From Candidatus Micrarchaeota archaeon (lineage in GTDB: Archaea > B1Sed10-29): 64,000 nucleotides of DNA. Under the pieces are notes generated by a model that saw nothing but the letters and a program-made list of their open reading frames with translations, did no database searches and was not told the DNA's origin. The stretch spans positions 46,115 to 110,114 of the forward strand of contig CAZOFO010000001.1 of the NCBI GenBank assembly GCA_964579265.1, in the 5' to 3' direction. The position numbers were made by a program, and so were the translations under genes. Below are positions 1-18,092 of this stretch, piece by piece; the stretch's first letter is position 1; each line of letters begins with the position of its first letter.

Positions 1-1
1 G

Positions 2-2044
2 GAAAAGCTCAGAGAAGTTGGTGAAGAAATAAGAGGAATGATAAAAGAAGGTGAAATACCTGAAGAAGTAAAAAAAGAAATAGAAAAACAGCACTCTAAA
101 CTCAAAGATAAACTAGGAAGAGAACCTGAGGTAGCAGTAAGATCAAGTGCCACATCCGAAGATCTAAAAGGAGCGAGTTTTGCAGGTCAACAAGAAACCT
201 ATCTTAATGTAAAAGGAATAAAAAATGTCTTAGAAAAAATTAAAGAATGTTTTGCTTCTCTTTACACTGATAGAGCAATATACTACAGAGAAAGAAAAGG
301 ATTTGACCATCTAGATGCTGCTCTATCCGCAGCAATACAAAAAATGGTTCATTCCGAATCATCAGGAGTAGCCTTTACCCTGGACCTTAGAGACGGGGAC
401 AATGATACAATAACAATAGAAGGGTCCTGGGGACTAGGCGAATACATAGTAGGAGGGAAAGTAACACCCGACACGTACTTCATAGACAAAGAAAAACTTG
501 AGATAAAAGAAAGGAAAATAGCAACGAAGAAGAAAAAATTAGTTAACAAGCCCGAAGGCGGTACAGTAGAAGAAAAAGTACCTGAAGAAGAACAAGAAAA
601 ACAGATATTACCTGATGAAAAGATAAAGAAACTAGCTAGATATACAAAAGAAATAGAAGAACACTATAACTTCCCACAGGATATAGAATGGGGTTTTGAC
701 AAAAAACAGGAAAAAATCTATATATTACAATCCAGACCCGAAACAGCTTGGTCCGAGAAAGATATAAAGACCAAGAAAAGATCAAAGGGAGAAGTAATAC
801 TGGAGGGAATGTCAGCAAGCCCAGGAATAGAACACGGAAAAGCAAAAATAGTACACAATGTTGAAGAACTAGATAAAGTAGAAAAAGGAGATATCTTGGT
901 AACCGAGATGACCAATCCTGATATGGTTCCAGCAATGAGAAGAGCAAGCGCAATAACAACAGATGAAGGAGGACTAACCAGTCACGCTGCAATAATATCA
1001 AGAGAACTAGGAATACCTTGTGTAGTGGGTACAGGAGAAGCTACAGAAAAAATAGAAAATGGAAAAATAATAAGCGTGGACGGAACCCACGGAGAAGTGT
1101 TTAAAGGAGTAGTAGAATCAGAAAAACACGAAGAAGAAAAGAAACCCGTTCCAGAAACAGAAACAAACATCTACGTGAATCTAGGAGTTCCAGAAATAGC
1201 TGAAGAAGTATCTAAAAAACCTGTAGATGGAGTGGGATTGATGAGAGAAGAATTCATACTATCAACACACGTCAAAGAACACCCACTGTCACTCATAGAA
1301 AAAGGAGAAGAGGAAAAATTTATAGAAAAACTATCGGGAGGAATACTGGAAGTAGCGGAAGCATTCGACCCTAGACCAGTCGTACTCAGACTCAGCGACT
1401 TCAAAACCAATGAATACAGAAACCTAAAAGGAGGAGAAAAACACGAACCACACGAAAGCAATCCAATGATAGGATGGAGAGGATGCTCCAGATACATATC
1501 AGACAAATACCAACCAGCATTCGAACTAGAACTAAAAGCCATAAAAAAGGCCCGTGAAAAACAGGATAACATCCATCTAATGATACCGTTCGTAAGAACA
1601 ATAGAAGAAATAAAAGAAACAGAAAAACTAATGGAAAAACACGGATTAAAAAGAGGAGAAAATCTAAAAATATGGATGATGGCAGAAGTACCATCAAACG
1701 TTCTACTAACCGAAGAATTCGCCGAATACTGCAGCGGCTTCTCAATAGGAACAAACGACCTCACCCAACTAGTTCTAGGAGCAGACAGAGACTCCGAGAT
1801 ACTGGCGGAGCTAGGTGCATTCGACCAGAGAAACGAAGCAGTAAAAAAATCAATAAAAAAGATAATAGAAAAAGCACACAAAAAAGGAAACACCGTAAGC
1901 ATATGCGGACAACTTCCAAGCATATACCCGGAATTCTGCGAATTCCTAGTGGAACAAGGAATAGACTCCATCTCAGTAAATCCAGACACCATTGAAAAAG
2001 TCAAAAGAATTGTTGCCAAAGCAGAAGAAAAACACAAAAACTGA
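2..2044 (+). CDS. ppsA: phosphoenolpyruvate synthase (pyruvate, water dikinase), 5'-truncated at window edge
   Basis: Reading frame is open from the first base of the window. PEP-utilising mobile domain with phospho-His motif GGLTSHAAIISRELGIPCVVG, followed by C-terminal PEP/pyruvate-binding TIM-barrel motifs (RLSDFKTNEY, GTNDLTQ). The 668 aa visible is the C-terminal ~85% of a ~780-aa PpsA. Confidence 0.75.
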   Translation, partial: EKLREVGEEIRGMIKEGEIPEEVKKEIEKQHSKLKDKLGREPEVAVRSSATSEDLKGASFAGQQETYLNVKGIKNVLEKIKECFASLYTDRAIYYRERKGFDHLDAALSAAIQKMVHSESSGVAFTLDLRDGDNDTITIEGSWGLGEYIVGGKVTPDTYFIDKEKLEIKERKIATKKKKLVNKPEGGTVEEKVPEEEQEKQILPDEKIKKLARYTKEIEEHYNFPQDIEWGFDKKQEKIYILQSRPETAWSEKDIKTKKRSKGEVILEGMSASPGIEHGKAKIVHNVEELDKVEKGDILVTEMTNPDMVPAMRRASAITTDEGGLTSHAAIISRELGIPCVVGTGEATEKIENGKIISVDGTHGEVFKGVVESEKHEEEKKPVPETETNIYVNLGVPEIAEEVSKKPVDGVGLMREEFILSTHVKEHPLSLIEKGEEEKFIEKLSGGILEVAEAFDPRPVVLRLSDFKTNEYRNLKGGEKHEPHESNPMIGWRGCSRYISDKYQPAFELELKAIKKAREKQDNIHLMIPFVRTIEEIKETEKLMEKHGLKRGENLKIWMMAEVPSNVLLTEEFAEYCSGFSIGTNDLTQLVLGADRDSEILAELGAFDQRNEAVKKSIKKIIEKAHKKGNTVSICGQLPSIYPEFCEFLVEQGIDSISVNPDTIEKVKRIVAKAEEKHKN

Positions 2045-2048
2045 TAAA

Positions 2049-3266
2049 ATGAAAAAATTAACAGGACCAAGAAATCTTTCAAAAAGAACAGAACAAATAG
2101 AAAAATCACCAATAAGAAGAATAACACGTCTACTTGAAGAAGCAGGAAAAAAAGAATCAGTAATAAGCTTTGGAGGAGGAGCACCAAGCCTTGCACCACC
2201 ACAAGACTCAGTAAACCACGTAGCTGAAAAAATGAAAAAAGAACCACAGAAATCAATTTCATACGGTTCTACACCTGGATTACTTGAAACAAGGGAAAAA
2301 ATAACAAAAATGCTGAAAAAAGAAGAAAATATAGACATAGATCCAGAAAAAGAAATAACAATGACCCATGGTGGAACCCAAGGACTATTTGCCACTCTAC
2401 AAACTTTGATAAACCCAGGACAAGAAGTAATGATACCCAACCCCGAATATTTAGGCTACCCACAAGCTATAAAAATAGCAGGAGGAAAGATAAACTGGGT
2501 AAAAACAACCTGGAAAGAAGATTTTCAAATAACTCCGGAAAAAGTCAAAGAAAACCTAACAGAAGATACCGAGCTAATAATGCTCATCTCCCCTGATAAC
2601 CCGACCGGCAGGATGCTCACCGATGAAAATCTAAAAGGGATAGTCGAAATAGTTGAAGACGAAGATCTATGGCTTCTTACGGATGATATCTACAAAAACA
2701 TAATCTACGGAGAAAAGGAATTCACTAACTCCAGGGAATTCGGAGCCAGAGAAAAAACCATAACATGCAACAGTTTCTCAAAAACAGGATCCATACCTGG
2801 AATGAGAATCGGCTACACCTACGGACCAGAAGACTTCATCTCAAATATGACTAAACTACTTCAATATGAATCACTGTGCATGGCAAAACCACCACAAATA
2901 TTCATAAACCATTTCCTAAGAGAAAAAGGAAAATACAAAAGAAAATACATAAATGAAACAGTACTACCAACCTACAAAAAAAGAAAAGACGTAATGAAAG
3001 AATCTCTTGAAAAATACCTGCCCAAAGCAAACTTCACAGAACCAGCAGGAGCATTCTACTTCTTCGTGGATATGAAAAATTACTTAAAAAACTTCAAAGA
3101 CGAGGAAGAATTTTCCAAAAAACTATACGAAGAAAAAGAAGTAGTAGTAATACCTGGCAGGTACTTCGGAAACGAAGGAAAAGAACACGTTAGATTTACT
3201 TTTGTTTCAGAACCTCAAAAAAAGATAAAAGAAGGTATAAAAAGAATATCAGAATTCTTAGAATAA
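2049..3266 (+). CDS. class I pyridoxal-phosphate aminotransferase (aspartate/aromatic aminotransferase-like)
   Basis: NPxNPTG-type motif (ISPDNPTGRM) and PLP-lysine motif SFSKTGSIPGMRIGY. Start placed at ATG 2049 (MKKLTGP) immediately after the ppsA stop; the 1992 start in the ORF track overlaps ppsA by 53 nt. Confidence 0.7.
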   Translation: MKKLTGPRNLSKRTEQIEKSPIRRITRLLEEAGKKESVISFGGGAPSLAPPQDSVNHVAEKMKKEPQKSISYGSTPGLLETREKITKMLKKEENIDIDPEKEITMTHGGTQGLFATLQTLINPGQEVMIPNPEYLGYPQAIKIAGGKINWVKTTWKEDFQITPEKVKENLTEDTELIMLISPDNPTGRMLTDENLKGIVEIVEDEDLWLLTDDIYKNIIYGEKEFTNSREFGAREKTITCNSFSKTGSIPGMRIGYTYGPEDFISNMTKLLQYESLCMAKPPQIFINHFLREKGKYKRKYINETVLPTYKKRKDVMKESLEKYLPKANFTEPAGAFYFFVDMKNYLKNFKDEEEFSKKLYEEKEVVVIPGRYFGNEGKEHVRFTFVSEPQKKIKEGIKRISEFLE

Positions 3267-3287
3267 ATAAAATAATAACTTTAAAAC

Positions 3288-3405
3288 AGCCCCGTGGTGT
3301 AGCGGTCAAGTCCTATACCATAAAAATCAATAAAAAGGTAAGGGCTACGTAAAAGCATAGCAGGCCCTGGACCTGCTGACAGCGGTTCGAATCCGCTCGG
3401 GGCTA
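3288..3405 (+). tRNA. tRNA-Gln (anticodon CUG) with a ~45-nt intron at a non-canonical position (D-arm / position 26 region)
   Basis: Acceptor AGCCCCG/CGGGGCU with A1-U72 as in archaeal tRNA-Gln. T-arm AGCGG-TTCGAAT-CCGCT. Anticodon arm GCAGG-CCCTGGA-CCTGC gives anticodon CTG. The 5' exon (GTGTAGCGGTCAAG, D-arm) is separated from the anticodon arm by an AT-rich insert (TCCTATACCATAAAAATCAATAAAAAGGTAAGGGCTACGTAAAAG). Exact exon/intron junctions are not resolved. Position 33 reads C rather than the near-universal U. Confidence 0.6.
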
Positions 3406-3406
3406 T

Positions 3407-3805
3407 CTAATTTATCTCCAAATCAAACTTTTTTAATCTGCTCAAACTCGGTCTAAGAGGATAAGTATCTCCATCAATCAATAAAACCATCTCTTCCAAA
3501 CTCTTATTAATAACTAAAGTATACTCTGAATCATCTTCTTCTCCCATAAATACCTTCTCATGCAGCTCCCCATCATGCTCTAATCCACCGTACAAAGCAG
3601 CTCTCAATATCTCACTAGCTCTATATTCATCAATAAAGATATTAAACTCTTCATCCGGAGATCTCTTACTTCCGTGTCTATTCCCCAGTCTTTCTTCCAG
3701 TATATTCTTATACCTCTTTACACCTTCTCCCGCAGGATGCGTTGTAGCTATAAATACATCCGAGTTCGAACTTCTTCCCTTTGATCTATTTTCTCCTACT
3801 ATCAT
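3407..3805 (-). CDS. hypothetical protein (132 aa)
   Basis: ORF with plausible coding composition, ending 2 nt from the tRNA-Gln 3' end. No motif recognised with confidence. Confidence 0.4.
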   Translation of the reverse strand: MIVGENRSKGRSSNSDVFIATTHPAGEGVKRYKNILEERLGNRHGSKRSPDEEFNIFIDEYRASEILRAALYGGLEHDGELHEKVFMGEEDDSEYTLVINKSLEEMVLLIDGDTYPLRPSLSRLKKFDLEIN

Positions 3806-4068
3806 CTAATCGCCCTTGGGGTGAGCCTGATTATCAAACTTCTTTAAGCCTTCAAAACTACTTAATTAAGCCGTCCTTTAAATAACTAACGAAACTATTG
3901 TAAAAAATCTACATAAATAAATAGAGTATAGATGGAAAAAATGAACAATATGTAGATAAACACCTTTTTTATAACGAAATCCGTAATTTAATAGTCACTG
4001 TAAATACATCTAACAATATTAAATAACTACAAAAATAAAGAAAAACAAAATTATTCTAGAAAATAGAA

Positions 4069-4141
4069 GGGTCCGTGGTCTAGTGGCTATGACGTCGCCT
4101 TCACGAGGCGAAGTGCAGGAGTTCGAATCTCCTCGGACCCA
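4069..4141 (+). tRNA. tRNA-Val (anticodon CAC)
   Basis: Cloverleaf: acceptor GGGTCCG/CGGACCC; anticodon arm TCGCC-TTCACGA-GGCGA (U33, anticodon CAC); T-arm AGGAG-TTCGAAT-CTCCT; discriminator A. Confidence 0.8.
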
Positions 4142-4331
4142 TCAAAAACCAATTCAATTTTAAAAAATCATGATCCCCGAACGTTTCCGAATTGATAAAA
4201 TCCACATCAAAACACGTAAAAATTACCTATATACTCTATCCTAAATTAAAAAAATCACTAAATGTTCAAAAATCGACTTAAAAACCCAAAGTTTTAAATA
4301 GTTCCCCCCTCTCAAACTAAATAATTAAATC

Positions 4332-4393
4332 CCCAGCATGAACTGCTCCCCAAAGGGCAGGTAAATGCTGGGCTCTCCCTTCCCTTTTTTTTT
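4332..4393 (+). other. extended GC-rich hairpin followed by an oligo-T run (candidate small RNA 3' end or intrinsic terminator)
   Basis: CCCAGCAT...ATGCTGGG is an 8-bp outer stem enclosing an inner 6-bp stem (CTGCTC/GGGCAG) with loop CCCAAA, followed by CTCTCCCTTCCCTTTTTTTTT. It sits in a 370-nt intergenic region with no ORF on either strand. Confidence 0.3.
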
Positions 4394-4514
4394 CCACTAA
4401 TTTTCAAAAACTAGTCCTTCTTCCCCAATCTAAAAAGTAAGTCTGAAAAGTTCTAGAGCATCTATCGCAAGTTTTTTAAAGTTCAAAAGCCAAACATAAA
4501 CAGGGTGAAGAGGA

Positions 4515-5147
4515 GTGACTCGAGCTATAATATATATAGACGGAAACAATTTCTACCATAATACCCAAAAAGAAGGGCTGAACCCCAACAAAATAGATTT
4601 CAGAAAACTAAGCAAACATGTCGCTCAATCATTTGATTGCTCCTGGGAAGAGACCTATTACTACAACTCCATACCCAGCATAGATACGAATAAAGAAAAA
4701 TACCATTCCCATCTAGGATTCCTCAATAGCTTGAGATACCTACCTAAATTTACGGTTAGAACCAAAAAACTTCAAAAACCGTCGGAAGAAGAGATTCAAA
4801 GGAAGAAAAAGGATTTACTGGAAAGGACCGATATCTGCTATGACTGCAGAACCGCGATAAAAGAAAAATACCAGAAACATTTAGAAGATCTCTCCAAAAA
4901 AGAAAAAGGAATAGACGTAGTGATAACCACAGATATGATCAAAGAAGCATTGAAAAACAGGTATGATACCGCGATACTGATCACAGGAGACTCACAATTT
5001 ATACCTGCACTAGAACTTATTGAAGAAGAAAATAAAAAACCAGCAACATCATTCGTTTTCCAAGGATACGCAAATGAACTCAGAGATAAATTCGACTACC
5101 ATGTACTAAAGAAAGAAGAATTAAAAGACTGCTACTACGAAGAATAA
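4515..5147 (+). CDS. NYN-domain (LabA/DUF88-like, PIN-like fold) predicted ribonuclease
   Basis: N-terminal IYIDGNNFY, central KGIDVVITTDM and AILITGDSQFIPAL match the NYN/LabA Asp-containing motifs. An insert carries a CYDC pair. GTG start. Confidence 0.6.
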   Translation: MTRAIIYIDGNNFYHNTQKEGLNPNKIDFRKLSKHVAQSFDCSWEETYYYNSIPSIDTNKEKYHSHLGFLNSLRYLPKFTVRTKKLQKPSEEEIQRKKKDLLERTDICYDCRTAIKEKYQKHLEDLSKKEKGIDVVITTDMIKEALKNRYDTAILITGDSQFIPALELIEEENKKPATSFVFQGYANELRDKFDYHVLKKEELKDCYYEE

Positions 5148-5172
5148 TGATGTTTAAAAAAATAATCCAAAT

Positions 5173-5292
5173 GCTCCGATAGTCTAGTGGCCAAGGATTC
5201 GAGCCTCTCGTAAACTTTTAGAAAAAGTTTAATCAAAAAATTCTAAAGTCTAGGGATAGCTCGAGACCCGGGTTCAAATCCCGGTCGGAGCA
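5173..5292 (+). tRNA. tRNA-Glu (anticodon CUC) with canonical 47-nt intron (5211-5257) after position 37
   Basis: Acceptor GCTCCGA/TCGGAGC. Anticodon stem CGAGC/GCTCG with loop CTCTCG[intron]A gives anticodon CTC. T-arm CCGGG-TTCAAAT-CCCGG. The intron contains its own hairpin (AAACTTTT..AAAAGTTT). Confidence 0.75.
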
Positions 5293-5416
5293 TCTTGATC
5301 TTTTATCTCAATATCCTGAAAAATATTAATTTTAATTACAAAAATTCCCAATTCTGATGCTAATCAAAAACAGATTCAGTAAATTTTAAATACTTCGAGT
5401 ACTTACTTTTACAGGC

Positions 5417-5878
5417 ATGTACCCCAGAAAAGAAATAGATGAAAAAGACATAGAAATAATAAAAGAACTCCGGCAAGAAGGCAGAGCTAGTTACAGGGAA
5501 ATAGCTGAAAAACTAGATGTTTCCCCCGGAACAGTAAGAAACAGAATAAACGAACTCGAAGAAGAAGGAATAATAAAAGGATACCACGCAGTAGTGGACT
5601 GGGATAAACTAGGTTATGAAGTAGCTGCAATAATAGGTATAGAGATAAAATCACGTTCTCTTGACCAATTAACAGAAAAACTAAAATCCATCCCAAACGT
5701 TTACGCGGTTTACACTACCACCGGACAGTACGACTTATTCATAGGATTCAAATGCAAGTCAATGCAGGAACTAGATGAATTCGTAAAGAACGAATTAGCC
5801 CATCCCTCAATAGCTAAAACAACTACATTCATAATACTCGACGAAGAAAAAGAAGCCAGAACATTCCTCGAAGATTGA
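5417..5878 (+). CDS. Lrp/AsnC-family transcriptional regulator
   Basis: N-terminal HTH (DIEIIKELRQEGRASYREIAEKLDVSPGTVRNRINELEEEGII) plus a C-terminal RAM-domain-like region; 153 aa. Confidence 0.75.
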   Translation: MYPRKEIDEKDIEIIKELRQEGRASYREIAEKLDVSPGTVRNRINELEEEGIIKGYHAVVDWDKLGYEVAAIIGIEIKSRSLDQLTEKLKSIPNVYAVYTTTGQYDLFIGFKCKSMQELDEFVKNELAHPSIAKTTTFIILDEEKEARTFLED

Positions 5879-5994
5879 AAAATCTACAAAAAATAATCCT
5901 CTACCTACAAACACTAGTTCTTTTAAAAGATAAGTTCTTTCTATTTCTAAAGGAAAATCTTGTACTCAATAAAAAGCAGTGAGAAAAAGATAAA

Positions 5995-7464
5995 ATGATC
6001 AAAATAAAATTCGAAGACGTCAAAGTAATATTCAGAGACCTCGGAGAAGTAATGATGTACTTCTCCTCAGCCTTTCTCCTTCCAATAATAGTTTCACTTA
6101 TCTACAGAGAAGGATCAAATGAACTAATCTACTATCTAGCCCCTGCTATACTTACTTTCACTTTCGGTCTACTACTAAACAGAGTTTTCCACACAAATAA
6201 AGATACCGAGAAGACCCACGCCTTCAGCATGGTTGTCATAGCCTGGTTCATCCTACCTCTTTCAGGAGCAGTACCCTACATGCTCTACGGAGTACCTTCT
6301 GGAAGCGCTTACTTCGATTCCGTTTCAGCATTCACTACTACAGGGTTAACACCACTTAGAGAACAAGGAGCTTATCCCGCTAGCTTAATGTTCTGGAGAA
6401 GCACACAAGCCTGGATAGGAGGAGCAGGAATAATAGTTCTAGCACTAGTAGGAATATTCGCATATATAAAATCCTACCAGCTATACAAAGCAGAAGGAAG
6501 AGAAGAAAGGCTAAGACCCAGTATTAAAGGAACTGTGAAAAGGATATGGTGGATATATATAGTTCTAACTTCAATAGGAGTATTATTGCTACTAATATCA
6601 GGATTAACTCCTTTCCAGTCAGTAAATTATTCAATGAGCGCTATAAGCACCAATGGAATGGATATGGCGTGGATGCAACTTGAAGAGATGAATAACTTAG
6701 GGGCTGAAATATCAATAGCTATCATAATGCTTCTAGGATCATTCTCATTCTACATACACTACCAGTTCCTGAAGAAAAAATGGAGGTCCTACCTCGGAGA
6801 TATACAGGTTAAACTAACCATAATACTCCTCCTATTAGGAGCAATGGTTACCCTACCTCAATTCATGTCCATGTACGGATCCGCAGACGGAGTAAGGTAC
6901 TCACTATTCCACTCAACTTCAGCGATAACTGCAGGAGGATTCCATTCGGTTTCAGGAGTTGAATGGACGGAAGGCATCAAGATCACTCTTGGCCTACTCA
7001 TGGTGGTAGGAGGATCGGCCGGATCGACCGCAGGAGGACTTAAAATAATAAGGTTCTGGATATTCCTCAAATCCATATACTGGAAGATAAAAGAATACGC
7101 TTTGCCTGAAAGAGCACACTTCTCAAGGAAAATAGAAGGAAGAGAAACCTCAGACAAACAATTAAGAACTACATATCTATTTATATTGCTCTATATATTA
7201 TTCATAGTTCTCGGTGGACTAGTAATAACGCTTTCAGAGCCAGGGGTATCTTCAGGAGATGCTCTAGTAGCCACCTCCTCATCACAAGGTAACGCGGGTC
7301 TCATGATAGGAGTAGTGGAACCGGGAATGAGAAATGTAACCAAGGCGGTACTAGTCTTCAACATGGTGGTGGGCAGAATAGAAATAATACCAGTGCTACA
7401 CGCAATAGGGTTCCTGCTCAGATATAAAAAGACCCCTTCCCTAAAAAAATCAAGAAAGATTTGA
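5995..7464 (+). CDS. trkH: TrkH/KtrB-family K+ uptake transporter membrane subunit
   Basis: Multi-pass membrane protein with repeated selectivity-filter-like motifs (FTTTGLTP, ISTNGMD, ITAGGFHS, SSQGNAGL). Confidence 0.7.
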   Translation: MIKIKFEDVKVIFRDLGEVMMYFSSAFLLPIIVSLIYREGSNELIYYLAPAILTFTFGLLLNRVFHTNKDTEKTHAFSMVVIAWFILPLSGAVPYMLYGVPSGSAYFDSVSAFTTTGLTPLREQGAYPASLMFWRSTQAWIGGAGIIVLALVGIFAYIKSYQLYKAEGREERLRPSIKGTVKRIWWIYIVLTSIGVLLLLISGLTPFQSVNYSMSAISTNGMDMAWMQLEEMNNLGAEISIAIIMLLGSFSFYIHYQFLKKKWRSYLGDIQVKLTIILLLLGAMVTLPQFMSMYGSADGVRYSLFHSTSAITAGGFHSVSGVEWTEGIKITLGLLMVVGGSAGSTAGGLKIIRFWIFLKSIYWKIKEYALPERAHFSRKIEGRETSDKQLRTTYLFILLYILFIVLGGLVITLSEPGVSSGDALVATSSSQGNAGLMIGVVEPGMRNVTKAVLVFNMVVGRIEIIPVLHAIGFLLRYKKTPSLKKSRKI

Positions 7465-7515
7465 ATAAAATCAACTGAATAAAAAACTTTAGAATAACAT
7501 TAAAAAGGTGATTAA

Positions 7516-8166
7516 ATGTACATCGTTGTAATAGGTGCAGGAAAAATAGGAAGACATCTCACAAGAATATTGATAGAAGAAGGACACGACGTAGTAGTAG
7601 TGGACCGAGATGGAGACGTATGTCATGAAGTAGCATCCGAATACGAAGCACTAACAATAAGAGGAAATGCAACAAGACCAAACGTACTAGAAGACGCAGG
7701 TATAGGAGAAGCTGACTCTGTAATATCTTTAACAGGAACTGACGAAACCAATCTAGTAGTCGGAATGATAGCCAAACAAATGGGAGCAAAAGAAGTAGGA
7801 ATAAGACTAGGAGCAACACACTACGACGAAGAAGTTCTCCATAGATTAGGGATAGACAGAGCTATTTATCCAGAAGCTAACGCTGCAGGATACATATCTC
7901 AAATTATTACAAAGCCAGAAGTAGTAAGTTTATCATTCCTAGAAAAAGGAGAAGCAGTAATACTTGAACTAGAACCTACAGAAGGATCAGAGATAGCAAA
8001 TGAAAAGGTAAAAAAAGCAGAAAAGCCAGAAGAAGCTTCAGTAGTAGCTATATATGAAGACGATAAACTAGTGATACCAACACCTGAAACAGAAATAAAA
8101 CCAGGACAAAAAGTACTAATGCTAACAAGAAAAGAAAAAACAAGCGAAGTTGAAAAACTGGCTTGA
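7516..8166 (+). CDS. trkA: TrkA-type K+ transport NAD-binding regulatory subunit (TrkA-N + TrkA-C)
   Basis: Rossmann motif VVIGAGKIGRHLTRIL..DVVVVD. Adjacent to trkH on the same strand. Confidence 0.7.
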   Translation: MYIVVIGAGKIGRHLTRILIEEGHDVVVVDRDGDVCHEVASEYEALTIRGNATRPNVLEDAGIGEADSVISLTGTDETNLVVGMIAKQMGAKEVGIRLGATHYDEEVLHRLGIDRAIYPEANAAGYISQIITKPEVVSLSFLEKGEAVILELEPTEGSEIANEKVKKAEKPEEASVVAIYEDDKLVIPTPETEIKPGQKVLMLTRKEKTSEVEKLA

Positions 8167-8235
8167 AAAAACTTCTGGAAAAGACCAAGCTCTAAAAATA
8201 TCGATAGAAACAATCAAAAGAAGAGGCGATAAAAT

Positions 8236-8718
8236 ATGACCGAAGATACACTAGTTAATGAAGGAGACGAAATCAAGTTTCACGGAAAGATAGGAGACTG
8301 GGTATGCGTTAAAAAAGGAAAATTCAAAGAAGACACCGATCCAATGGAAGTAGCTAAACTTCTTGCCAGTGTATACGACTCTTTCAAAAGAAAAATATGG
8401 GACTATGTTGGAACAGGGATAGATCTAGAAGAACTCGATCAAATCGCCTACGATATCACAGGAGCAGAGTACGATGAAGATGAAGATGAATACAGAATAA
8501 AAGGAAGAATAAGCAATGACCAGATAACTCAAGCACTTCAAGATCTGAAAAATAAAGTTCCAAGAAGAATAGATATAGAAAACAGCGAATTAAGAGAAGT
8601 AGCAAAGACTTACGTCACCAGAAAAACACTGGAATTGCTAAAAATAAGAATAGAGCCCGACCCAGATAACTTCGAAGACTACCTTGAAAAAAAGAGAAAA
8701 GGAATGATTCAAGAGTAA
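8236..8718 (+). CDS. hypothetical acidic protein (160 aa)
   Basis: ORF only; no recognised motif. Confidence 0.35.
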   Translation: MTEDTLVNEGDEIKFHGKIGDWVCVKKGKFKEDTDPMEVAKLLASVYDSFKRKIWDYVGTGIDLEELDQIAYDITGAEYDEDEDEYRIKGRISNDQITQALQDLKNKVPRRIDIENSELREVAKTYVTRKTLELLKIRIEPDPDNFEDYLEKKRKGMIQE

Positions 8719-8792
8719 CCGGTAAATAACTGGAAAAAACAAAGAAGATATAACTCTCTCTGACAAAAATAGTTACACGATTCAAAGGTAAA

Positions 8793-8865
8793 GGGGTCAT
8801 AGGGTAGCCTGGTATCCTACCGGCTTTGGGTGCCGGTGACCTGAGTTCAAATCTCAGTGACCCCA
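8793..8865 (+). tRNA. tRNA-Pro (anticodon UGG)
   Basis: Acceptor GGGGTCA/TGACCCC; anticodon arm CCGGC-TTTGGGT-GCCGG (anticodon TGG); T-arm CTGAG-TTCAAAT-CTCAG; D-arm GGGT/ATCC. One extra nucleotide between the D and anticodon stems, or a 6-bp anticodon stem. Confidence 0.7.
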
Positions 8866-8901
8866 TTTCAATTTGAAAAATTAAGCTTTATTTCAGTATT
8901 T

Positions 8902-8987
8902 GCAGGGGTGGCGGAGCCCGGTCAAACGCGTGGGACTTAAGATCCCATGGCTTAGTGCCTTCAAGGGTTCGAATCCCTTTCCCTGCA
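8902..8987 (+). tRNA. tRNA-Leu (anticodon UAA), class II with long variable arm
   Basis: Acceptor GCAGGGG/TCCCTGC (one G-U pair); anticodon arm TGGGA-CTTAAGA-TCCCA (anticodon TAA); variable arm GGC-TTAG-GCC; T-arm AAGGG-TTCGAAT-CCCTT. Confidence 0.75.
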
Positions 8988-9019
8988 TATAATATACTGC
9001 AGAGGATCTTCTAAGGTAT

Positions 9020-9436
9020 TCATTCCCAACATACTATTAGTTTAGAACTAGTTTCAATTTCCCCTGGATCTCTAACTTCTATATTAAATTCCCATGCTTC
9101 TCCTGAAGAATTCAAAGGAGTCATAGCTTTATCTAAATCCACATCACAGTCTTCAGGTTCTGCTTCATCCCAATCAACATCTAATTCTATCCCCCTGGTT
9201 CTGCTTGATTTCTCCATTCTTTCAAACGATTTTTCAAATCTGGTGGTGTTATAGGGATCTGTCTTCACTAGGCTTATCATCTCTTTTTCAACGTTTTTTC
9301 TTACGGTTGTGGTGGGATTTGTTTCTATGTAATCGGATTTTCTCTCTAGTTCGAGGTGAGGAACAAAGGAAAGTATTCCTGATAGAGCAAATCCTATCAT
9401 TACTACAGTTATTATGAATAGCTGTCCTTTTTTCAT
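9020..9436 (-). CDS. small pilin-like protein with archaeal class III (type IV prepilin-like) signal peptide
   Basis: N-terminus MKKG|QLFIITVVMIGFAL is a short basic leader, Gly at -1 and a hydrophobic stretch. Overlaps the next gene in the pilus operon. Confidence 0.5.
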   Translation of the reverse strand: MKKGQLFIITVVMIGFALSGILSFVPHLELERKSDYIETNPTTTVRKNVEKEMISLVKTDPYNTTRFEKSFERMEKSSRTRGIELDVDWDEAEPEDCDVDLDKAMTPLNSSGEAWEFNIEVRDPGEIETSSKLIVCWE

Positions 9437-10191
9437 TTATTCCACACTCCTACTACTACTTTTTTCGGATCGTAGTTAGGTTTTACTCTGGTAATGTTTA
9501 GTTCGACTTTGTTGTAGGAAGTTTCTACATCGGGACCTAGAGTTACTTTGTATTCGTTTTCAGCGTCTGGCAGGTAGTCAGTTATATTTAATGTTTTCTC
9601 TTCTGATTCCTCTTCTGAAAAACTCAGTGTACCTGCTTCTATTTTTTCAGTTTCATTTTCCACTAGAATCGATGTTTCTCCTTCTCCAGTCTGTGTGGCT
9701 TCTACAATCAGGATATTTTTCTTTCCTCTTTCATTTTTATCTACATCGAATTTTACTTCTTCCTCTTCCCCCTCTGATAGTAATAAGTTCTCTATACCTG
9801 TTTTTACTGTATTTATATCTTCTTGAGTATGTGTATTTACTATGCAGCTGCTGGTGGCCACTGTTTTTTCCTCAGGAAATTCTCCGGATTTTCCAACTAA
9901 ATTTTGAAGATAGCTTCCGTTATATATTTTTACATTTGACCCTAAGCCTTTTGGAGTCAATCCTTCTATCTCCGGGACTTCCCCTTCCTCAACCAGGCTC
10001 TCTCTTATTAGGTTATTGTTACATAGTGATAGTGATATGCTTTCTGATTGTCTTTTTAACCTTGGTGTGTTGTAGGGGTCTGTATAGCTTGGTGTTGATG
10101 TGATTTGCACTGATGCTAGAAAAAGTGTCAATAGGTGTATTGCTAGAAATGCTTCTATTGTTCTTATTAATCCTTTTTTCATTTTTTTCAC
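9433..10191 (-). CDS. pilin-like protein with class III signal peptide (252 aa)
   Basis: N-terminus MKKMKKG|LIRTIEAFLAIHLLTLFL. Multiple N-x-S/T sequons. Lies in the pilus operon. Confidence 0.45.
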   Translation of the reverse strand: MKKMKKGLIRTIEAFLAIHLLTLFLASVQITSTPSYTDPYNTPRLKRQSESISLSLCNNNLIRESLVEEGEVPEIEGLTPKGLGSNVKIYNGSYLQNLVGKSGEFPEEKTVATSSCIVNTHTQEDINTVKTGIENLLLSEGEEEEVKFDVDKNERGKKNILIVEATQTGEGETSILVENETEKIEAGTLSFSEEESEEKTLNITDYLPDAENEYKVTLGPDVETSYNKVELNITRVKPNYDPKKVVVGVWNK

Positions 10192-10194
10192 CTA

Positions 10195-10680
10195 TTACCA
10201 TGTTTGAATTTCTATTTCAGATTCTCTATATTCTTCTCCTGTCCATATATAGCTTCTTGTTCTTTTTGTTCTTGCTCCTGCTGTTTCATTTGCTTGGCAT
10301 TTATATGTTTTATCGCTTTCTATTTCGCTTACTTTGATCTTTAAAGAAGTTTCTACAGGTATTTTTTCCTCTAGTTCACTGCATCTTGTCTGATTTATCT
10401 CTTCTAATTTTTGAAGGTCCAGGATATGTGGATTGTTCCCTTCTTCGTAGTACGTTAGTCCTAGTTCCTGAACTTGGTTTATGCTGCTCCAGTTTCTAGG
10501 TTTTCCAGGGTTTTGGGTAATTGTTTGAGATATTAATATATTTTCAATCTGGTCTGGATCTCTTTGAGTTCTTAAAGTATCTAAAGGATATGCTGAAGCT
10601 CGCATGGCTATTATATATCCTGTTATAAATATCATTACAGCTATTATGAAGTCATAGGTCATTATTCCTTTTTCATTCAT
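10195..10680 (-). CDS. pilin-like protein with class III signal peptide (161 aa)
   Basis: N-terminus MNEKG|IMTYDFIIAVMIFITGYIIA. In operon. Confidence 0.45.
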   Translation of the reverse strand: MNEKGIMTYDFIIAVMIFITGYIIAMRASAYPLDTLRTQRDPDQIENILISQTITQNPGKPRNWSSINQVQELGLTYYEEGNNPHILDLQKLEEINQTRCSELEEKIPVETSLKIKVSEIESDKTYKCQANETAGARTKRTRSYIWTGEEYRESEIEIQTW

Positions 10681-10716
10681 CTCTTGGTTTCCCCTCCTTC
10701 CTTAGATTTATTTTAT

Positions 10717-11958
10717 TTATCCTACAGGAGAACCAGCTGCCTGAGCATCTGGTGATTCTCCGATTATTATCTGATATTGGTTTTCCGGCATTGCTTTTAC
10801 TCTTGCTCCCACTGAAGAACTTTCTCTTACTTCTATTTTTTCTGCAGTAACGTCTAATTTGTTCTCTCTACAGGGTTCACAATTCATTTGCACGAAGATA
10901 ATATCTTCACTTTCTATATTTCTTAAGGGATCTATATCTTCTTCTGCTGCTATCTCTCTAACTTTTTCTGCTATTTCTTCGGTGGTTACGTCTTCTCCTA
11001 TTGTGTATACTGCTTGTCCTGATTCTTCGTCTACTGCTCCTGGAGCTATTACTGTTATTTCTTCTGATATTGATCTGGTGAATGGTGGTGGGGCTAGGAA
11101 GAATTGGAAAAGTATTGTGGTTATTATTACTAGTATGACGGAGTGTTTGACTCCTGAGAGTATTGATCCTTCTCCCATTTGACCTGCTATTAGTCCTGCG
11201 AAGAATCCTTGCACTAGTGATAAGTGGAAGAAGTAGGTTTGGAAGTCTTGTGGTGATAAGTCGGTGGGTGTACCTCCTACTACTTCTGCAGCCTGGTTGA
11301 GGTCTGGTGTTGCTGGTATAAAGGATACTGTAAGGGCTGCTATTATTCCTAGGAATAGGAAGAATATTAGGTATATTGATATGGTGTATACTCTTAATTT
11401 GCTTTCTCTCTGTTTTTTCATTCTTTCTATCGATTTTATGTCTCCTGCGACTGTTTTCAGGGCTTTTGCTATGTCTCCTCCTGATCTGTGGCTTTCTATT
11501 ATAACGGTTATTGCTTTTTTAGCTAGGTAGCTATCGTTTCTTTCTATGAATTTTTCCATGGCTTCTTCAAATGGTACTCCCCAGCTTATTTGGTTTGCTG
11601 TTTTTTCCATCTCTTCGGATAGTGCTCCGTAGCTTCCTTTTGTAGATGTTTCCAGAGCTTTTGGTAGAGTTAAGCCTGAGTTGATTGCTTCTGAAACGTC
11701 TCTTAGGTAGTCGGGGAGGTATTTTTCTATCTGTCTTATTCTTCTGTATTTCCAGTACCTGTAAAAAGTGTAGGGAAGTCCAATTAGCATTATTGAGAGT
11801 ATTGTTATTGTTTGGAAGTATTCTGTACCTGCTAGAGTTACTACTGACAATATTAGGGCTATCATTCCGATTATTGTTATAAGAATAGTTATTTTTTCAG
11901 TCCTCTCAAGGTCTTTTATTTCTCTTTTTAAAGATTTTTTAAATTCCATTTTTGACAC
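10717..11958 (-). CDS. type II secretion system F-domain membrane protein (TadC/FlaJ-like pilus assembly platform)
   Basis: Polytopic membrane protein with a T2SSF-like cytoplasmic domain (SYLAKKAITVIIESHRSGGDIAKAL). Confidence 0.6.
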   Translation of the reverse strand: MSKMEFKKSLKREIKDLERTEKITILITIIGMIALILSVVTLAGTEYFQTITILSIMLIGLPYTFYRYWKYRRIRQIEKYLPDYLRDVSEAINSGLTLPKALETSTKGSYGALSEEMEKTANQISWGVPFEEAMEKFIERNDSYLAKKAITVIIESHRSGGDIAKALKTVAGDIKSIERMKKQRESKLRVYTISIYLIFFLFLGIIAALTVSFIPATPDLNQAAEVVGGTPTDLSPQDFQTYFFHLSLVQGFFAGLIAGQMGEGSILSGVKHSVILVIITTILFQFFLAPPPFTRSISEEITVIAPGAVDEESGQAVYTIGEDVTTEEIAEKVREIAAEEDIDPLRNIESEDIIFVQMNCEPCRENKLDVTAEKIEVRESSSVGARVKAMPENQYQIIIGESPDAQAAGSPVG

Positions 11959-11967
11959 TTATTTTTA

Positions 11968-12864
11968 CTATGCTCCTGTTTCCGGTTTGCTTCCTTTTAA
12001 CATTATTATGAATAGTATTGATAGTATTGGGAGTAGAATATAGATTAATAAAGTAAATAGGTCTCTTAGAGGTATTGGTAGTCCTCCCATGGTTCCCATT
12101 ATAGTAATCATTATTACTGCGAGTACTGGTCCCGCTACGAATACGGTTGTGTATACTTCAGCCATTATTTCCAATGAATCTATGTATTCTCTTTGTTTAT
12201 CTTTGTGTTCTTCCATGTACTGGGTTGATTTTTCAAATAAGTAGTCTCTAGTGTTTCCTCCTGTTCTTTCTATTGATACTAGTCCCCATAACATATCTTT
12301 AAATTTCGGGGAAGGTGTTTGTCTTGCTGCTTCTGCTATTGCTGTGACTGTATCGTATCCGAATACTTCTATATTTCTTGATATTCTTTTGCATTCTTCT
12401 GATAGTTTTCCATATTCTTCGAATTCTCCTACTGTTTTGAAGACTTGGTATAGAGGTATTCCTGCTCCGGCTGTAGTTGCCATGTGTCCGGCAGCGTACG
12501 GGATGTGTTTTTCGATCTCTTCTCTTATCCTATCCAGACGGTACGAGGGGTATATAACGAAAGCTATGAACACTCCGGCTATATAGAGCATGGAAAGAGT
12601 TATTGTAAGTAGGGCTAGGATTATTCCTGTCATCTCCAGTATTTGTGTTAATAGAAAATAGAAGAAGGTTATTGCTAGGGGGGTGGTTATCATTATGGTG
12701 AATATTGCTGTTGATATGTATTCTTCTATTGTTACGTATATCCTGGCTCTTTGTAGTGTTGGTTTTAATGGTTTCATTGTGTCTTTGAGCCATTCTATAT
12801 CTAGTACTCCTATTTTTTTCATTATCTTATAGGCTAGGATCCTGTACTGTTTTGGAAGGAACAT
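11968..12864 (-). CDS. type II secretion system F-domain membrane protein (TadB/FlaJ-like)
   Basis: T2SSF-like region (IPLYQVFKTVGEFEEYGKLSEECKRISRNIEVFGYDTVTAI) flanked by TM helices. Confidence 0.6.
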   Translation of the reverse strand: MFLPKQYRILAYKIMKKIGVLDIEWLKDTMKPLKPTLQRARIYVTIEEYISTAIFTIMITTPLAITFFYFLLTQILEMTGIILALLTITLSMLYIAGVFIAFVIYPSYRLDRIREEIEKHIPYAAGHMATTAGAGIPLYQVFKTVGEFEEYGKLSEECKRISRNIEVFGYDTVTAIAEAARQTPSPKFKDMLWGLVSIERTGGNTRDYLFEKSTQYMEEHKDKQREYIDSLEIMAEVYTTVFVAGPVLAVIMITIMGTMGGLPIPLRDLFTLLIYILLPILSILFIIMLKGSKPETGA

Positions 12865-12865
12865 T

Positions 12866-14842
12866 TTATGTTTTCACTTCCTCTTCTTTTATTTTTTCCA
12901 TTAGTTTTTCAGGATTGCTCTGGTACTGTGCTATTACTTCTCCTACTTCTTCAAATCCTGTTATGTTGTTTTCCTGCATCCATTTTAGTATTGTAGCTCT
13001 TCTCTGCAGTTCTCTCCACATTTCTTCTTTTGATATTCCTTTTTCATCGGATATTTCTTTTAGTATATGGCTTTCTTCTGATACGAATTCGAAGTAATCG
13101 TCCGAGGGTACGTAAGTGAATAGTTCATTGGTTATTGGTTGTCCTGTGTCCATATCTACATCTACTACTTCTACCAGTGATTTTACTCTTCTTGCATCTA
13201 TTTTTTCTACTTTGGAAAATCCCAGTATTATTATCACATCGAGGTGTTGAAGCAGTCCAGGAGAGAGATTTATTGGTTCTGTTTTTAATCTGTTTATTAC
13301 TGCTTGTATGGAGTCTGCGTGCATTGTTGCGAATCCAGGGTGTCCTGTTGCCATTCCCTGGAACAGGTTGTATGCTTCTTCTCCTCTAACTTCTCCCACT
13401 ATTATATGGTCTGGTCTTTCTCTTAATCCTGCTTTTACTAGATCGAACATTGTTACTTCTCCTTGTTCTGTTTTTCCTTTTTTTCCTGTTTTTGTAGCTA
13501 TTTTGTTTATCCAGTGTTCGTGGGGAAGTCTAATTTCAGGTGTGTCTTCTATTGACACTATTTTACGGTCTCTTGGTATGAACATGCTTAGAGAGTTCAG
13601 CATTGATGTTTTTCCTGTTGCTGTTCCTCCGGATACTAGTACTGAGTTTTGATATTCTACTGCTACCCATATGTATGCTCCTATTATTGCTGGGACTGTT
13701 CCAAAGTTCAGTTGATCTATTATTGTGAGTGGTTCTTCTGTGAATTTTCTTATTGTAAATGTTGATCCTTTCATCGCAATTTCTTTTCCTGCTGAGTAGG
13801 TTGCTTGTAATCTGGATCCGTCTGGTAGTGCTCCTTGTAGTAATGGTTCCGATACTGATATGTGTTTCCCTGTTCTTTGAGCTAGTTTTGTAACGAATCT
13901 ATCTAGTTCATTACTGTCTTCATAGGTTACGTTTGTTTTTAGAGATCCATATCTTTTGTGGTATATGTATATTGGTATATTTTCTCCGTCGCATGAGATA
14001 TCTTCGATTGATTTATCGTGCATTAAAGGTTCTATTTTTTCTAGTCCTAAGAAGTCTCTGTATATGTAGTATAGAAGTTTATTGTATTGGTCTTGCGTTA
14101 TCTCTATTTCGTAATTCTTTATTATCCCGCTGAGTTTATCTTTTAGATATTCTCTCATTTCTTGTCTTTCTGTTGCTTCCATTAGGTTTACATCTAGTAG
14201 TTCTTTTAGAAGTCCTTTTATCTTCTCTAGTTTTTCTTTTTCTTCCTCAGTTAGTGGTGGTTCCAGTACGTCGTAGAGCAGTCTTTCTTCATCTTCGTTC
14301 CAGTGCAGTCTTGCGTATGCCCAGGGTTCTATTAATTCGTATCTTTCATCTACTTCTTCTAGTTTTGGTGGTTGCCAGGAAGGATTTATTTTTTCTGCTT
14401 TTACTTTTTCAGGTATGCTGAATAGTTCAGGTCCTCCTCTAACTTCTTGTATTGGTTTTACTCCTTCTTTTAGTCTTATTTTTCTAGTGACTTGTGGGAA
14501 TTCCCATACTTCTGGTTTTTGGAATTTTTTCTGTTCTTTTTCTTCTTCCTTTTTCTCTTTTGCAAAACCTCCTTTTATTTCTTTCTCTTTTAGTTTTTCT
14601 AATCTGGGTGATGTTCTCGTTTCAGGAGGTTCTCTTTTCTTAGTGGCTAGTTCTTCTTCTTTTGTTTCTTCTTTCATTCTTTCTCTTCTTTGGAATATGT
14701 TTTCTCTTTTCGGAGGTATTTCGGTTGGTTTTCTTTCTTTTCTTTCTTTGTTTTTTTCTTGTATTTTTTCAGCTGCTTTCTCGTGTTCTTCTTTTTCTTC
14801 TAATTTTTCTCCTGTTTTCTTTATTATGTCTTTAAGAGCCAC
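12866..14842 (-). CDS. type II/IV secretion-system ATPase (FlaI/TadA/VirB11 family) with ~170-aa K/E-rich N-terminal extension
   Basis: Walker A VSGGTATGKTSMLNSL, Asp box IVSIEDTPEI, Walker B/His box GEVRGEEAYNLFQGMATGHPGFATMHADS. The N-terminal third is low-complexity K/E/R repeats. Confidence 0.8.
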   Translation of the reverse strand: MALKDIIKKTGEKLEEKEEHEKAAEKIQEKNKERKERKPTEIPPKRENIFQRRERMKEETKEEELATKKREPPETRTSPRLEKLKEKEIKGGFAKEKKEEEKEQKKFQKPEVWEFPQVTRKIRLKEGVKPIQEVRGGPELFSIPEKVKAEKINPSWQPPKLEEVDERYELIEPWAYARLHWNEDEERLLYDVLEPPLTEEEKEKLEKIKGLLKELLDVNLMEATERQEMREYLKDKLSGIIKNYEIEITQDQYNKLLYYIYRDFLGLEKIEPLMHDKSIEDISCDGENIPIYIYHKRYGSLKTNVTYEDSNELDRFVTKLAQRTGKHISVSEPLLQGALPDGSRLQATYSAGKEIAMKGSTFTIRKFTEEPLTIIDQLNFGTVPAIIGAYIWVAVEYQNSVLVSGGTATGKTSMLNSLSMFIPRDRKIVSIEDTPEIRLPHEHWINKIATKTGKKGKTEQGEVTMFDLVKAGLRERPDHIIVGEVRGEEAYNLFQGMATGHPGFATMHADSIQAVINRLKTEPINLSPGLLQHLDVIIILGFSKVEKIDARRVKSLVEVVDVDMDTGQPITNELFTYVPSDDYFEFVSEESHILKEISDEKGISKEEMWRELQRRATILKWMQENNITGFEEVGEVIAQYQSNPEKLMEKIKEEEVKT

Positions 14843-15275
14843 AGTGATTCACCATCTCTATCTTTGTTTCTTCTGATCCTTCCTTGAATATTAAACATCT
14901 TTCACCTGGTGATACTTCTCCTGAAATATTTTTTTCACTGCATTTTATGTTTGTAGTTTCTATATTGTTTTCTGCGGGCATGTGAGTTTCCGTGTTTATC
15001 GTTATTTTTCCTTCTTGGCATTCTAATGAGGATGCGTATCCTGTTTCTATTCTTGGGAGGTTTAATTTTATTTCAGTGGTTTGATTAGTGTTTTCCATGG
15101 TTGATACTCCGTAATGTAGTTTTTTATTTATGTATTGATTTATTTCTTCTACTTTCTCTCTTATTCTTTGGTCTCTGGCATTTTGGGTTTGAGAGTGAAC
15201 TGTGAAGTAGGCTGTTATTAGTATTGTTCCCATTATCGCGTATCTTAGTGTTATTGTGGCTCCTAACGGTGGCAT
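14832..15275 (-). CDS. small protein with hydrophobic N-terminus (possible pilus accessory/minor pilin)
   Basis: 147-aa ORF overlapping the ATPase start by 11 nt. N-terminal hydrophobic segment; Cys pairs in the C-terminal half. Confidence 0.35.
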   Translation of the reverse strand: MPPLGATITLRYAIMGTILITAYFTVHSQTQNARDQRIREKVEEINQYINKKLHYGVSTMENTNQTTEIKLNLPRIETGYASSLECQEGKITINTETHMPAENNIETTNIKCSEKNISGEVSPGERCLIFKEGSEETKIEMVNHCGS

Positions 15276-15409
15276 CTTTATCCTTTTTTTGATTTTTTAT
15301 TTTCTTTTTCAAGTGTTTATTAATAATTAAATCAATAAATAAGTTTCCTTTAAATATTTCCTGTGTTTTTTCTTGAGTGTCTTGGAAATTTCTCTAGTTA
15401 TTATTTTCT

Positions 15410-17209: not shown

Positions 17210-17360
17210 CTTATTTAGGTTTGCATCTTCTGAAAATTTATATTTTATAACCTTCAGAATTATAAGTAACTAGATAAATAAAAGGGTTTAGTGGATAAAT
17301 AATTGGAAATTCATTTATACTGGAAGTTTTTTAAGTTTATCCAAGTGAACAGGATCAGAT

Positions 17361-18080: not shown

Positions 18081-18092
18081 TATATCTATAAA

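Follow-up and report, generated by a model that had tools for sequence, protein, structure and literature searches.

A tRNA-Gln(CUG) gene with a D-loop bulge-helix-bulge intron and an encoded C33 in a probable DPANN archaeon

Elongator transfer RNAs (tRNAs) are regarded as having few invariant bases, and the uridine at position 33 (U33), which makes the anticodon U-turn, counts among them. Described exceptions at this position are the eukaryotic initiator tRNA-Met (C33), the Candida tRNA-Ser(CAG) (G33) and the Sulfolobales tRNA-Cys(GCA) (C33) (PMC5041475, PMC7668247); in yeast, a U33C mutation of tRNA-Gln(CUG) causes a pseudohyphal phenotype that its authors linked to poor CAG decoding (PMC3664417). 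Introns with bulge-helix-bulge (BHB) junctions at non-canonical tRNA sites, including the D-loop, are well documented and are frequent in DPANN archaea and Hadesarchaea; examples are the D-loop intron of the Methanopyrus kandleri pre-tRNA-Glu(UUC) and many cases in the Thermoproteales (PMC5829648, PMC4033280). Here we analyse a 118-nucleotide (nt) locus, positions 3288–3405 on the forward (+) strand of a 64,000-nt stretch of contig CAZOFO010000001.1 (the whole stretch is hereafter the window), where both features occur together. Judging from its sequence and that of its relatives, we put at roughly 0.85 the probability that the locus is a tRNA-Gln(CUG) gene that contains an intron and is functional, in a DPANN archaeon living in a hypersaline habitat. 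Its intron is nearly canonical in form, non-canonical in position only, and ordinary for such archaea. The unusual part is C33, which is specific to tRNA-Gln and recurs in several archaeal lineages.

The intron resembles the known non-canonical BHB introns in its exon–intron BHB, in being of the protein-spliced kind and in lying in the D-loop of a tRNA gene in a DPANN-type genome. The M. kandleri D-loop intron has been described as a relaxed HBh′ motif, whereas that of the window is an hBHBh′ motif with one G·A, both bulges and both flanking helices, and its site in tRNA-Gln is common to several DPANN lineages and Hadarchaeota. As to position 33, the gene shares with the eukaryotic initiator tRNA-Met and the Sulfolobales tRNA-Cys a C in place of the U-turn U, a normal 7-nt loop and conservation within a lineage. 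Unlike those tRNAs, it is an elongator tRNA-Gln, and the substitution is found in both the CUG and UUG isoacceptors and in several unrelated archaeal groups. The yeast SUP70 mutant involves the same isoacceptor and the same substitution (PMC3664417), but it is a laboratory mutation, whereas C33 is the conserved wild-type state here; moreover, archaea charge tRNA-Gln via glutamyl-tRNA synthetase (GluRS) and GatDE rather than via GlnRS, unlike the yeast case.

The Rfam tRNA model (RF00005; gathering score 29) matches 3288–3405 (+) end to end with 45.4 bits (E=1.9e-6 for the whole window). The sequence reads AGCCCCGUGGUGUAGCGGUC / AAGUCCUAUACCAUAAAAAUCAAUAAAAAGGUAAGGGCUACGUAA / AAGCAUAGCAGGCCCUGGACCUGCUGACAGCGGUUCGAAUCCGCUCGGGGCUA. 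The alignment leaves a 48-nt unaligned insert in the D-loop after AGCGGU, places all four arms around it and runs unbroken through the anticodon arm (GCAGG-CCCUGGA-CCUGC), whose loop at 3365–3371 (+) comprises C32, C33 (3366), the anticodon C34 U35 G36 (3367–3369), G37 and A38. With the intron removed, the sequence is 73 nt long, and ARAGORN folds it into a normal cloverleaf and calls it tRNA-Gln(ctg). The 5′ exon (3288–3307, +), delimited by the BHB register search and pair counts, carries the 5′ strand of the acceptor stem, U8 G9, the 5′ strand of the D-stem and the D-loop up to C20a; the 3′ exon (3353–3405, +), delimited by the Rfam alignment, the register search and ARAGORN, carries A20b A21, the 3′ strand of the D-stem, the anticodon arm, a 4-nt variable region, the T-arm, the 3′ strand of the acceptor stem and A73. 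A1 (3288) pairs with U72 (3404), A73 was read from the sequence and CCA is not encoded. The D-loop after splicing is AGCGGUCAA. The gene has the YUG anticodon, the A1:U72 pair and the standard D-loop of an archaeal tRNA-Gln, of which A1:U72 and the D-loop are recognition elements of GatDE (PMC9499178).

These results uphold several statements of the first-pass annotation of this DNA, which had called the gene tRNA-Gln(CUG) and had seen about 45 nt of AT-rich sequence ahead of the anticodon arm and an intron outside the canonical 37/38 site: the intron is 45 nt long with 31% G+C, and the anticodon loop CCCUGGA is uninterrupted. ARAGORN, which that annotation had proposed as a check, does not report the gene in default mode on the window. 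With the option -i it returns a tRNA-Phe(aaa) with a 31-nt intron, i.e. a canonical anticodon-loop intron in a tRNA of another identity. In that model, however, the anticodon arm is drawn from the AT-rich insert, and no use is made of the perfect GCAGG/CCUGC arm that Rfam aligns unbroken; the acceptor stem (A1:U72 and A73) agrees with that of the other archaeal tRNA-Gln genes we collected, and what the relatives conserve is the CUG arm and not the insert. We give the tRNA-Phe model practically no credence, refuted as it is by the comparative data. Neither of the outcomes that the annotation had named as fatal to its proposal, a 37/38 intron with U33 or the lack of a BHB at any D-arm junction, was found.

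The intron occupies 3308–3352 (+) and follows gene nt 20, between Sprinzl positions 20a and 20b. Because AAG stands at both junctions, four splice registers, extending up to 3311–3355 (Sprinzl 22/23), lead to one and the same mature RNA. Of the four, only that with cuts between 3307 and 3308 and between 3352 and 3353 fits a BHB. It was the winner of a search made exhaustively over the registers that leave a valid cloverleaf (x=20/y=66, i.e. a cut after nt 20 and one before nt 66), with a central helix H paired at 3/4 positions, an inner helix h′ of 6 bp and an outer helix h of 4 bp. The first-pass annotation had placed the intron in the D-arm or around positions 22–27; the D-arm stands, and the 22–27 stretch does not. 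Two further arrangements were rejected: cuts after gene nt 22 or 23, the registers implied by the Rfam alignment, give no central helix when tested by hand, and if the D-arm is formed by GUGU...AUAC, placing the intron at 25/26, the D-loop grows to 14 nt and a BHB is lacking.

We calibrated the motif geometry by hand on the canonical 37/38 intron of the window's own tRNA-Glu(CUC) gene (5173–5292, +; Rfam 50.3 bits; not reported by ARAGORN in default mode). That intron (5211–5257, 47 nt) follows G37; exon bases 32–35 (CUCU) pair with intron AGGG, and the bulges are C36 G37/U and A U/A38, the slash marking the cut. The geometry thus calibrated is an outer helix, a 4-position helix and, on each strand, a 3-nt bulge cut after its second base. 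In the tRNA-Gln gene (all features on the + strand), the outer helix h is the D-stem, in which GUGU (3297–3300; gene nt 10–13) forms 4 bp with GCAU (3355–3358; nt 68–71), these pairs being invariant in the alignments. An A·A mismatch (gene nt 14 and 67) lies at the h/H junction. The central helix H joins the exon strand GCGG (3302–3305; nt 15–18) to the intron strand ACGU (3347–3350; nt 60–63) as G:U, C:G, G:C and G·A. The 5′ bulge UC/A (3306–3308; nt 19–21) and the 3′ bulge AA/A (3351–3353; nt 64–66) were located by the register search, with predicted cleavage at 3307/3308 and 3352/3353, respectively. The inner helix h′ pairs AGUCCU (3309–3314; nt 22–27) with AGGGCU (3341–3346; nt 54–59) over 6 bp. 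The two introns of the window are alike in the 4-position helix, the two 3-nt bulges and the cut after the second bulge base, and presumably one enzyme acts on both. They differ in that the tRNA-Gln intron lies in the D-loop, so that its outer helix is the D-stem and not the anticodon stem.

The junction has the features of an EndA-type BHB (two 3-nt bulges on opposite strands, a 4-position helix and a cut after the second bulge base). A strict hBHBh′ motif, i.e. four standard H pairs and contiguous flanking helices, is the substrate of the narrow-specificity alpha4 and alpha′2 EndA. The EndA of DPANN archaea and Hadesarchaea has an extra loop (PMC5829648, PMC4033280). From that strict form the window's junction deviates slightly, by the G·A and the A·A. 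Since it is almost canonical, the junction itself does not demand an alpha2-beta2 or epsilon2 endonuclease; it is not strongly relaxed, which refines the earlier view that such positions require relaxed BHB recognition. The same annotation was right that non-canonical intron positions are known in archaeal lineages. The intron contains neither box C (RUGAUGA) nor box D (CUGA). An intron-borne box C/D guide RNA occurs in the Haloferax pre-tRNA-Trp. At 45 nt the intron is too short for a homing-endonuclease open reading frame (ORF) or a group I core, and the Rfam intron families gave no match.

We then compared the locus with its relatives. Seven syntenic loci (L008, L024, L030, L043, L130, L164 and L165; protein identity to the window 68–85%) share the gene order PEP (phosphoenolpyruvate) synthase, aminotransferase, tRNA-Gln, ..., Lrp, TrkH, TrkA, DUF2666; their NCBI labels are inconsistent (Micrarchaeota, Iainarchaeum or 'archaeon'). 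All seven have a D-loop intron at the window's site and the loop CCCUGGA with C33. Exons are near-invariant in this clade, whereas the introns range from 32 to 52 nt and diverge in sequence. The nearest outgroup that we reached, L167 (aminotransferase 50% identical, 43.5% G+C, partial synteny), has at the corresponding place (8585–8657, +) an intronless tRNA-Gln(CUG) with a normal loop, CUCUGGA (U33). The intron and C33 are therefore both derived in the window clade. The same data bear on the idea that the insert is retained and the mature tRNA has an enlarged D-arm: the insert differs in length between clade members, conservation or co-variation is confined to its BHB-forming ends, and the syntenic outgroup gene does without an insert. 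A retained insert is accordingly a very remote prospect.

Pairing is maintained across divergent introns. Pairs were counted after the intron loops had been trimmed to give a gap-free alignment, with L164 and L165 placed in the chosen register by hand. In eight sequences, 92% of the cells are paired, a value equalled by 0/500 column shuffles, and slid registers give 35–64%; both-sided changes occur in five pairs, and four of the five counted h′ pairs are compensatory. Within the window clade (six distinct genes), 91% are paired (1/500 shuffles equal it), both-sided changes occur in four pairs and 3/5 counted h′ pairs are compensatory. An H pair changes from C:G to U:A in L008 and L164, and the central-helix G·A is invariant (6/6). 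The chosen register also scores best in L008 and L030/L130; in L024 it comes second to an adjacent one, yet it is the register that gives a normal D-loop. The pairing and the compensatory changes indicate a real, maintained BHB intron.

The same intron site extends beyond the clade. When one genome per species was scanned for tRNA-Gln genes interrupted upstream of the anticodon, 32 loci from DPANN groups, Hadarchaeota and others were obtained. Three Hadarchaeota loci (L006, L018 and L021) and one metagenome-assembled genome (MAG) of Iainarchaeota (L015) carry an intron at the identical site, and in all four the window's register scores best and the central helix is fully standard at 4/4 positions (GCGG:CCGC, GUGG:CCAC etc.), its fourth position being G:C. 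In our literature searches, no paper describing this particular D-loop site in tRNA-Gln was found. There is also a second D-loop hot spot: two Hadarchaeota loci have tandem tRNA-Gln(UUG) and tRNA-Gln(CUG) genes (L007 at 2101–2199 and 2690–2788; L003 at 3557–3435 (-) and about 3256 (-)), each with an intron after nt 15 (GTGTAG/A...CACAA/TGG). The 123-nt copy in L003 appears to contain two D-loop introns. In Candidatus Nanohalalkaliarchaeum (L010, 5586–5462, -), an intronless tRNA-Gln(UUG) has an 18-nt duplicate of its 5′ end 52 nt upstream, which may be the footprint of an insertion or integration.

The C at position 33 (3366) departs from the canonical elongator state of U33 and a U-turn. The first-pass annotation had read this base as C33 and had left two options, an atypical tRNA or a misplaced junction; the Rfam alignment, two other assemblies and the seven relatives bear out the C and decide for the atypical tRNA. 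The window comes from a metagenome assembly, so that C33 or the insert could in principle be a sequencing or assembly artefact. But the gene is identical in an ENA contig (ERZ27266004 k141_77129, L001) and a Logan contig (SRR9330141). Over window positions 1–18171 (18 kb) the ENA contig differs from the window outside the gene, by 15 mismatches and 6 gaps (99.86% identity), while the Logan contig is 100% identical over 3.4 kb. The agreement of two other assemblies means that C33 is not an assembly error, and the loop and intron site recur in seven other species-level relatives; the chance of an artefact is negligible. In SRR9330141/143 and SRR16248216, short Logan contigs are likewise 100% identical to the window. 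Together with the differences from the ENA contig, this identity points to the presence of two or more closely related strains.

A second way of dismissing the gene would be to regard it as a pseudogene or redundant copy, with CAG read by tRNA-Gln(UUG) and with C33 and the insert as neutral damage. The genome is AT-rich and prefers CAA (72% of Gln codons in the long ORFs of the window), ARAGORN in default mode misses the gene, and the yeast U33C phenotype was linked to poor decoding of CAG (PMC3664417). Against this, the exons stay near-invariant at 68–85% protein identity while the freely changing intron keeps its helices by compensatory substitutions, the cloverleaf is intact, every clade member has the gene at the same syntenic position, and CAG still makes up 28% of Gln codons and 7.8 per 1000 codons. 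We regard a pseudogene as highly improbable. In the long ORFs, the share of G-ending codons for Glu (GAG 13%) and for Lys (AAG 16%) is about half that of CAG for Gln. TAA, TAG and TGA all serve as stops (37, 14 and 13 of the long ORFs, respectively), which means that the code is standard.

C33 is found in tRNA-Gln well beyond the window clade. We scanned JGI (Joint Genome Institute) metagenomes for the pattern C32-C33-YUG-G37-A38 followed by a tRNA-Gln-like T-arm and acceptor, and obtained at least 120 contigs (L040–L159); the scan selected C33 by design, and the frequency of C33 is not derivable from its counts. It gave at least 47 further distinct C33 tRNA-Gln sequences, all intronless 73-mers (e.g. 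L050 at 7079–7154 (-), L084, and L099 at 2295–2367). Adding five genes whose introns were spliced out (four of the window clade, and L069) brings the distinct full-length sequences to at least 52 (34 CUG and 18 UUG), with pairwise identity down to 64%. Their stems are 98–100% paired, with many pair types per position and compensatory changes, except at 50:64, where 87% are paired, and at 13:22, where the figure is 58% and U·U is frequent. ARAGORN calls all eight sampled loci tRNA-Gln. Taxon labels of these contigs are inferences from best protein hits: the contig of an abundant CUG type is Methanosarcinales/ANME (anaerobic methanotrophic archaea)-like, its TgtA being 80% identical to that of 'Methanosarcinales archaeon'; the contig of one UUG type, with 75–77% for SRP54, is Pacearchaeota-like; and other C33 contigs are GC-rich. 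The TgtA loci of Methanolobus and Methanoperedens do not conserve the synteny of the metagenome contig and lack tRNA-Gln there. No second tRNA-Gln gene was found on the loci with a C33 tRNA-Gln. A description of C33 in archaeal tRNA-Gln was not found in the searchable literature, which lacks most subscription papers, and its novelty is not proven.

Non-Gln tRNAs on the same contigs have U33 in 40 of 41 cases, the sole exception being a 96-nt ARAGORN call of tRNA-Cys on L006 with G33 that we regard as dubious, whereas 107 tRNA-Gln genes have C33, among the matches listed. This restriction to one isotype, and its recurrence in unrelated lineages, is what would be expected if a dedicated enzyme recognised tRNA-Gln and corrected the encoded C33 after transcription, either as a C-to-U deaminase or by a modification restoring U-like hydrogen bonding, to give a normal U-turn. 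C-to-U editing of tRNAs is also a real activity, affecting position 8 in archaea (CDAT8 of Methanopyrus) and, in trypanosomes and plants, position 32, which counts in favour of correction. However, we identified no candidate deaminase, we know of no case of editing at position 33, and our literature searches found none. Moreover, the sources on C33 in the eukaryotic initiator tRNAs and the Sulfolobales tRNA-Cys mention no correction (PMC5041475, PMC7668247). Correction after transcription is thus improbable, if less so than the other alternatives weighed above.

We favour C33 as an encoded, selected state in the window clade that would replace the U-turn uridine rather than represent damage. 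Cytidine at this position is presumably tolerated, by analogy with the eukaryotic initiator tRNA and the Sulfolobales tRNA-Cys; it may still permit a U-turn-like loop and modulate rather than abolish decoding. A further, novel reading takes C33 as an adaptation by which decoding is tuned in tRNA-Gln specifically; it would, for example, limit near-cognate reading of UAG and UAA. As for maturation, we propose that the 118-nt transcript would fold with the D-stem (h), H and h′ stacked and with the two 3-nt bulges on opposite strands, that EndA would cut after the second base of each bulge (3307/3308 and 3352/3353), and that an RtcB-type ligase would join the exons. As no CCA is encoded, it would be added post-transcriptionally. 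The tRNA would then be glutamylated by a non-discriminating GluRS, amidated by GatDE and used to read CAG.

Four points weigh against this account of a spliced, functional gene with a selected C33. (i) The fold constrained to the cloverleaf and BHB has -39.9 kcal/mol, compared to -42.4 kcal/mol for the unconstrained minimum free energy (MFE) fold, which pairs the intron with the 5′ strand of the D-stem and the anticodon arm. We do not take the MFE fold as functional, because L024 and other relatives do not conserve its complementarity. (ii) A G·A replaces the fourth pair of H, and an A·A stands between H and the D-stem. (iii) EndA (tRNA_int_endo) has no match among the Pfam-annotated genes of the contig stretches covering the window. 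(iv) The yeast U33C phenotype implies that C33 may be mildly deleterious and merely tolerated.

A conserved, isotype-specific C33 offers a natural system for asking what the U-turn uridine contributes to decoding, and raises the question of a deliberate detuning of tRNA-Gln, which is the principal near-cognate tRNA for UAG and UAA. On the annotation side, ARAGORN misses two intron-containing tRNAs of the window in default mode and miscalls one as tRNA-Phe with -i, which makes the tRNA sets of DPANN archaea look incomplete.

In L164 of the window clade, a 294-aa (amino acid) double-motif LAGLIDADG ORF lies between the aminotransferase and tRNA-Gln genes and runs 10 nt into the tRNA. At the same place the window has a 21-nt spacer (3267–3287) without a LAGLIDADG gene. 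A hidden Markov model built from the L164 protein and its homologues was run over the loci collected in this analysis and found four members only, all of LAGLIDADG_3 type with a double motif and 33–45% identical (tblastn). All four are oriented like a neighbouring tRNA gene that has a D-arm BHB intron, and run into its 5′ end: L164 (ORF 4280–5164, tRNA-Gln at 5155, intron after nt 20), L015 (ORF 2772–3656, tRNA-Gln at 3658, intron after nt 20), L014 (ORF 6844–6113 (-), tRNA-Gln at 6127 (-), D-loop intron of ambiguous register, nt 15–17) and L167 (ORF 10064–10690, tRNA-Glu at 10665, intron after nt 23). By a rough estimate, a chance placement within about 30 nt of a tRNA start in loci of 8–13 kb has a probability well below 1% per case, so that four such placements by chance are very unlikely. 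The outgroup tRNA-Glu(CUC) in question (L167, 10665–10768) has a D-arm intron, in contrast to the canonical intron of the tRNA-Glu in the window. A scan of viral contigs for the same family returned two weak relatives (29% identity), neither at a locus with a tRNA match.

A tentative explanation, which we consider rather unlikely but worth stating, is that the D-loop intron is the surviving half of a mobile pair with a free-standing LAGLIDADG endonuclease. The endonuclease would cut tRNA-Gln and tRNA-Glu genes in D-arm DNA that carries no intron, with a putative target around GTGTAGCGGTCAAGCAT; a BHB intron would split that target and protect the host gene, and gene conversion would spread the endonuclease gene and the intron jointly, in the manner of collaborative homing. 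The window intron would then be an orphan left after loss of the endonuclease gene, which is still at the locus in L164. The described counterpart, in which the intron protects its gene from the nearby enzyme, is the free-standing endonuclease F-CphI and the ORF-less psbA group I intron of cyanophage S-PM2 (PMC6083498). The LAGLIDADG loci share with it a free-standing putative endonuclease gene beside a gene with an ORF-less intron, in four independent cases; they differ in that the intron is a protein-spliced BHB tRNA intron and the putative endonuclease belongs to the LAGLIDADG family. If real, the pairing bears on the origin and movement of non-canonical tRNA introns, and such a mobile pair would provide a concrete mechanism for their gain and spread in DPANN archaea.

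Finally, the setting of the gene was considered. The window contains an archaeal signal recognition particle (SRP) RNA and a 5S rRNA (Rfam), has about 35% G+C and encodes Glu/Lys-rich proteins, including DUF7343, DUF2666 and TrkAH; one relative is a MAG from sediment, with the label T1Sed10. A hypersaline habitat is probable, and we infer that the host is a DPANN archaeon related to Nanohaloarchaeota. An Rfam match to HPnc0260, a bacterial antisense RNA, at 3374–3510 (-) was rejected: at 32.7 bits it is weak and below the gathering score of 59, and it is spurious because it is only the tRNA-Gln 3′ half read on the opposite strand. Possible tRNA-modification genes in the window are a radical-SAM + DUF5591 gene (49018–50325, -), a domain pair that we take to be that of archaeosine-pathway enzymes, a THUMP/ThiI-like gene (56589–57401) and a SpoU methylase gene (23148–23831). 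These genes might be relevant to the odd anticodon loop.

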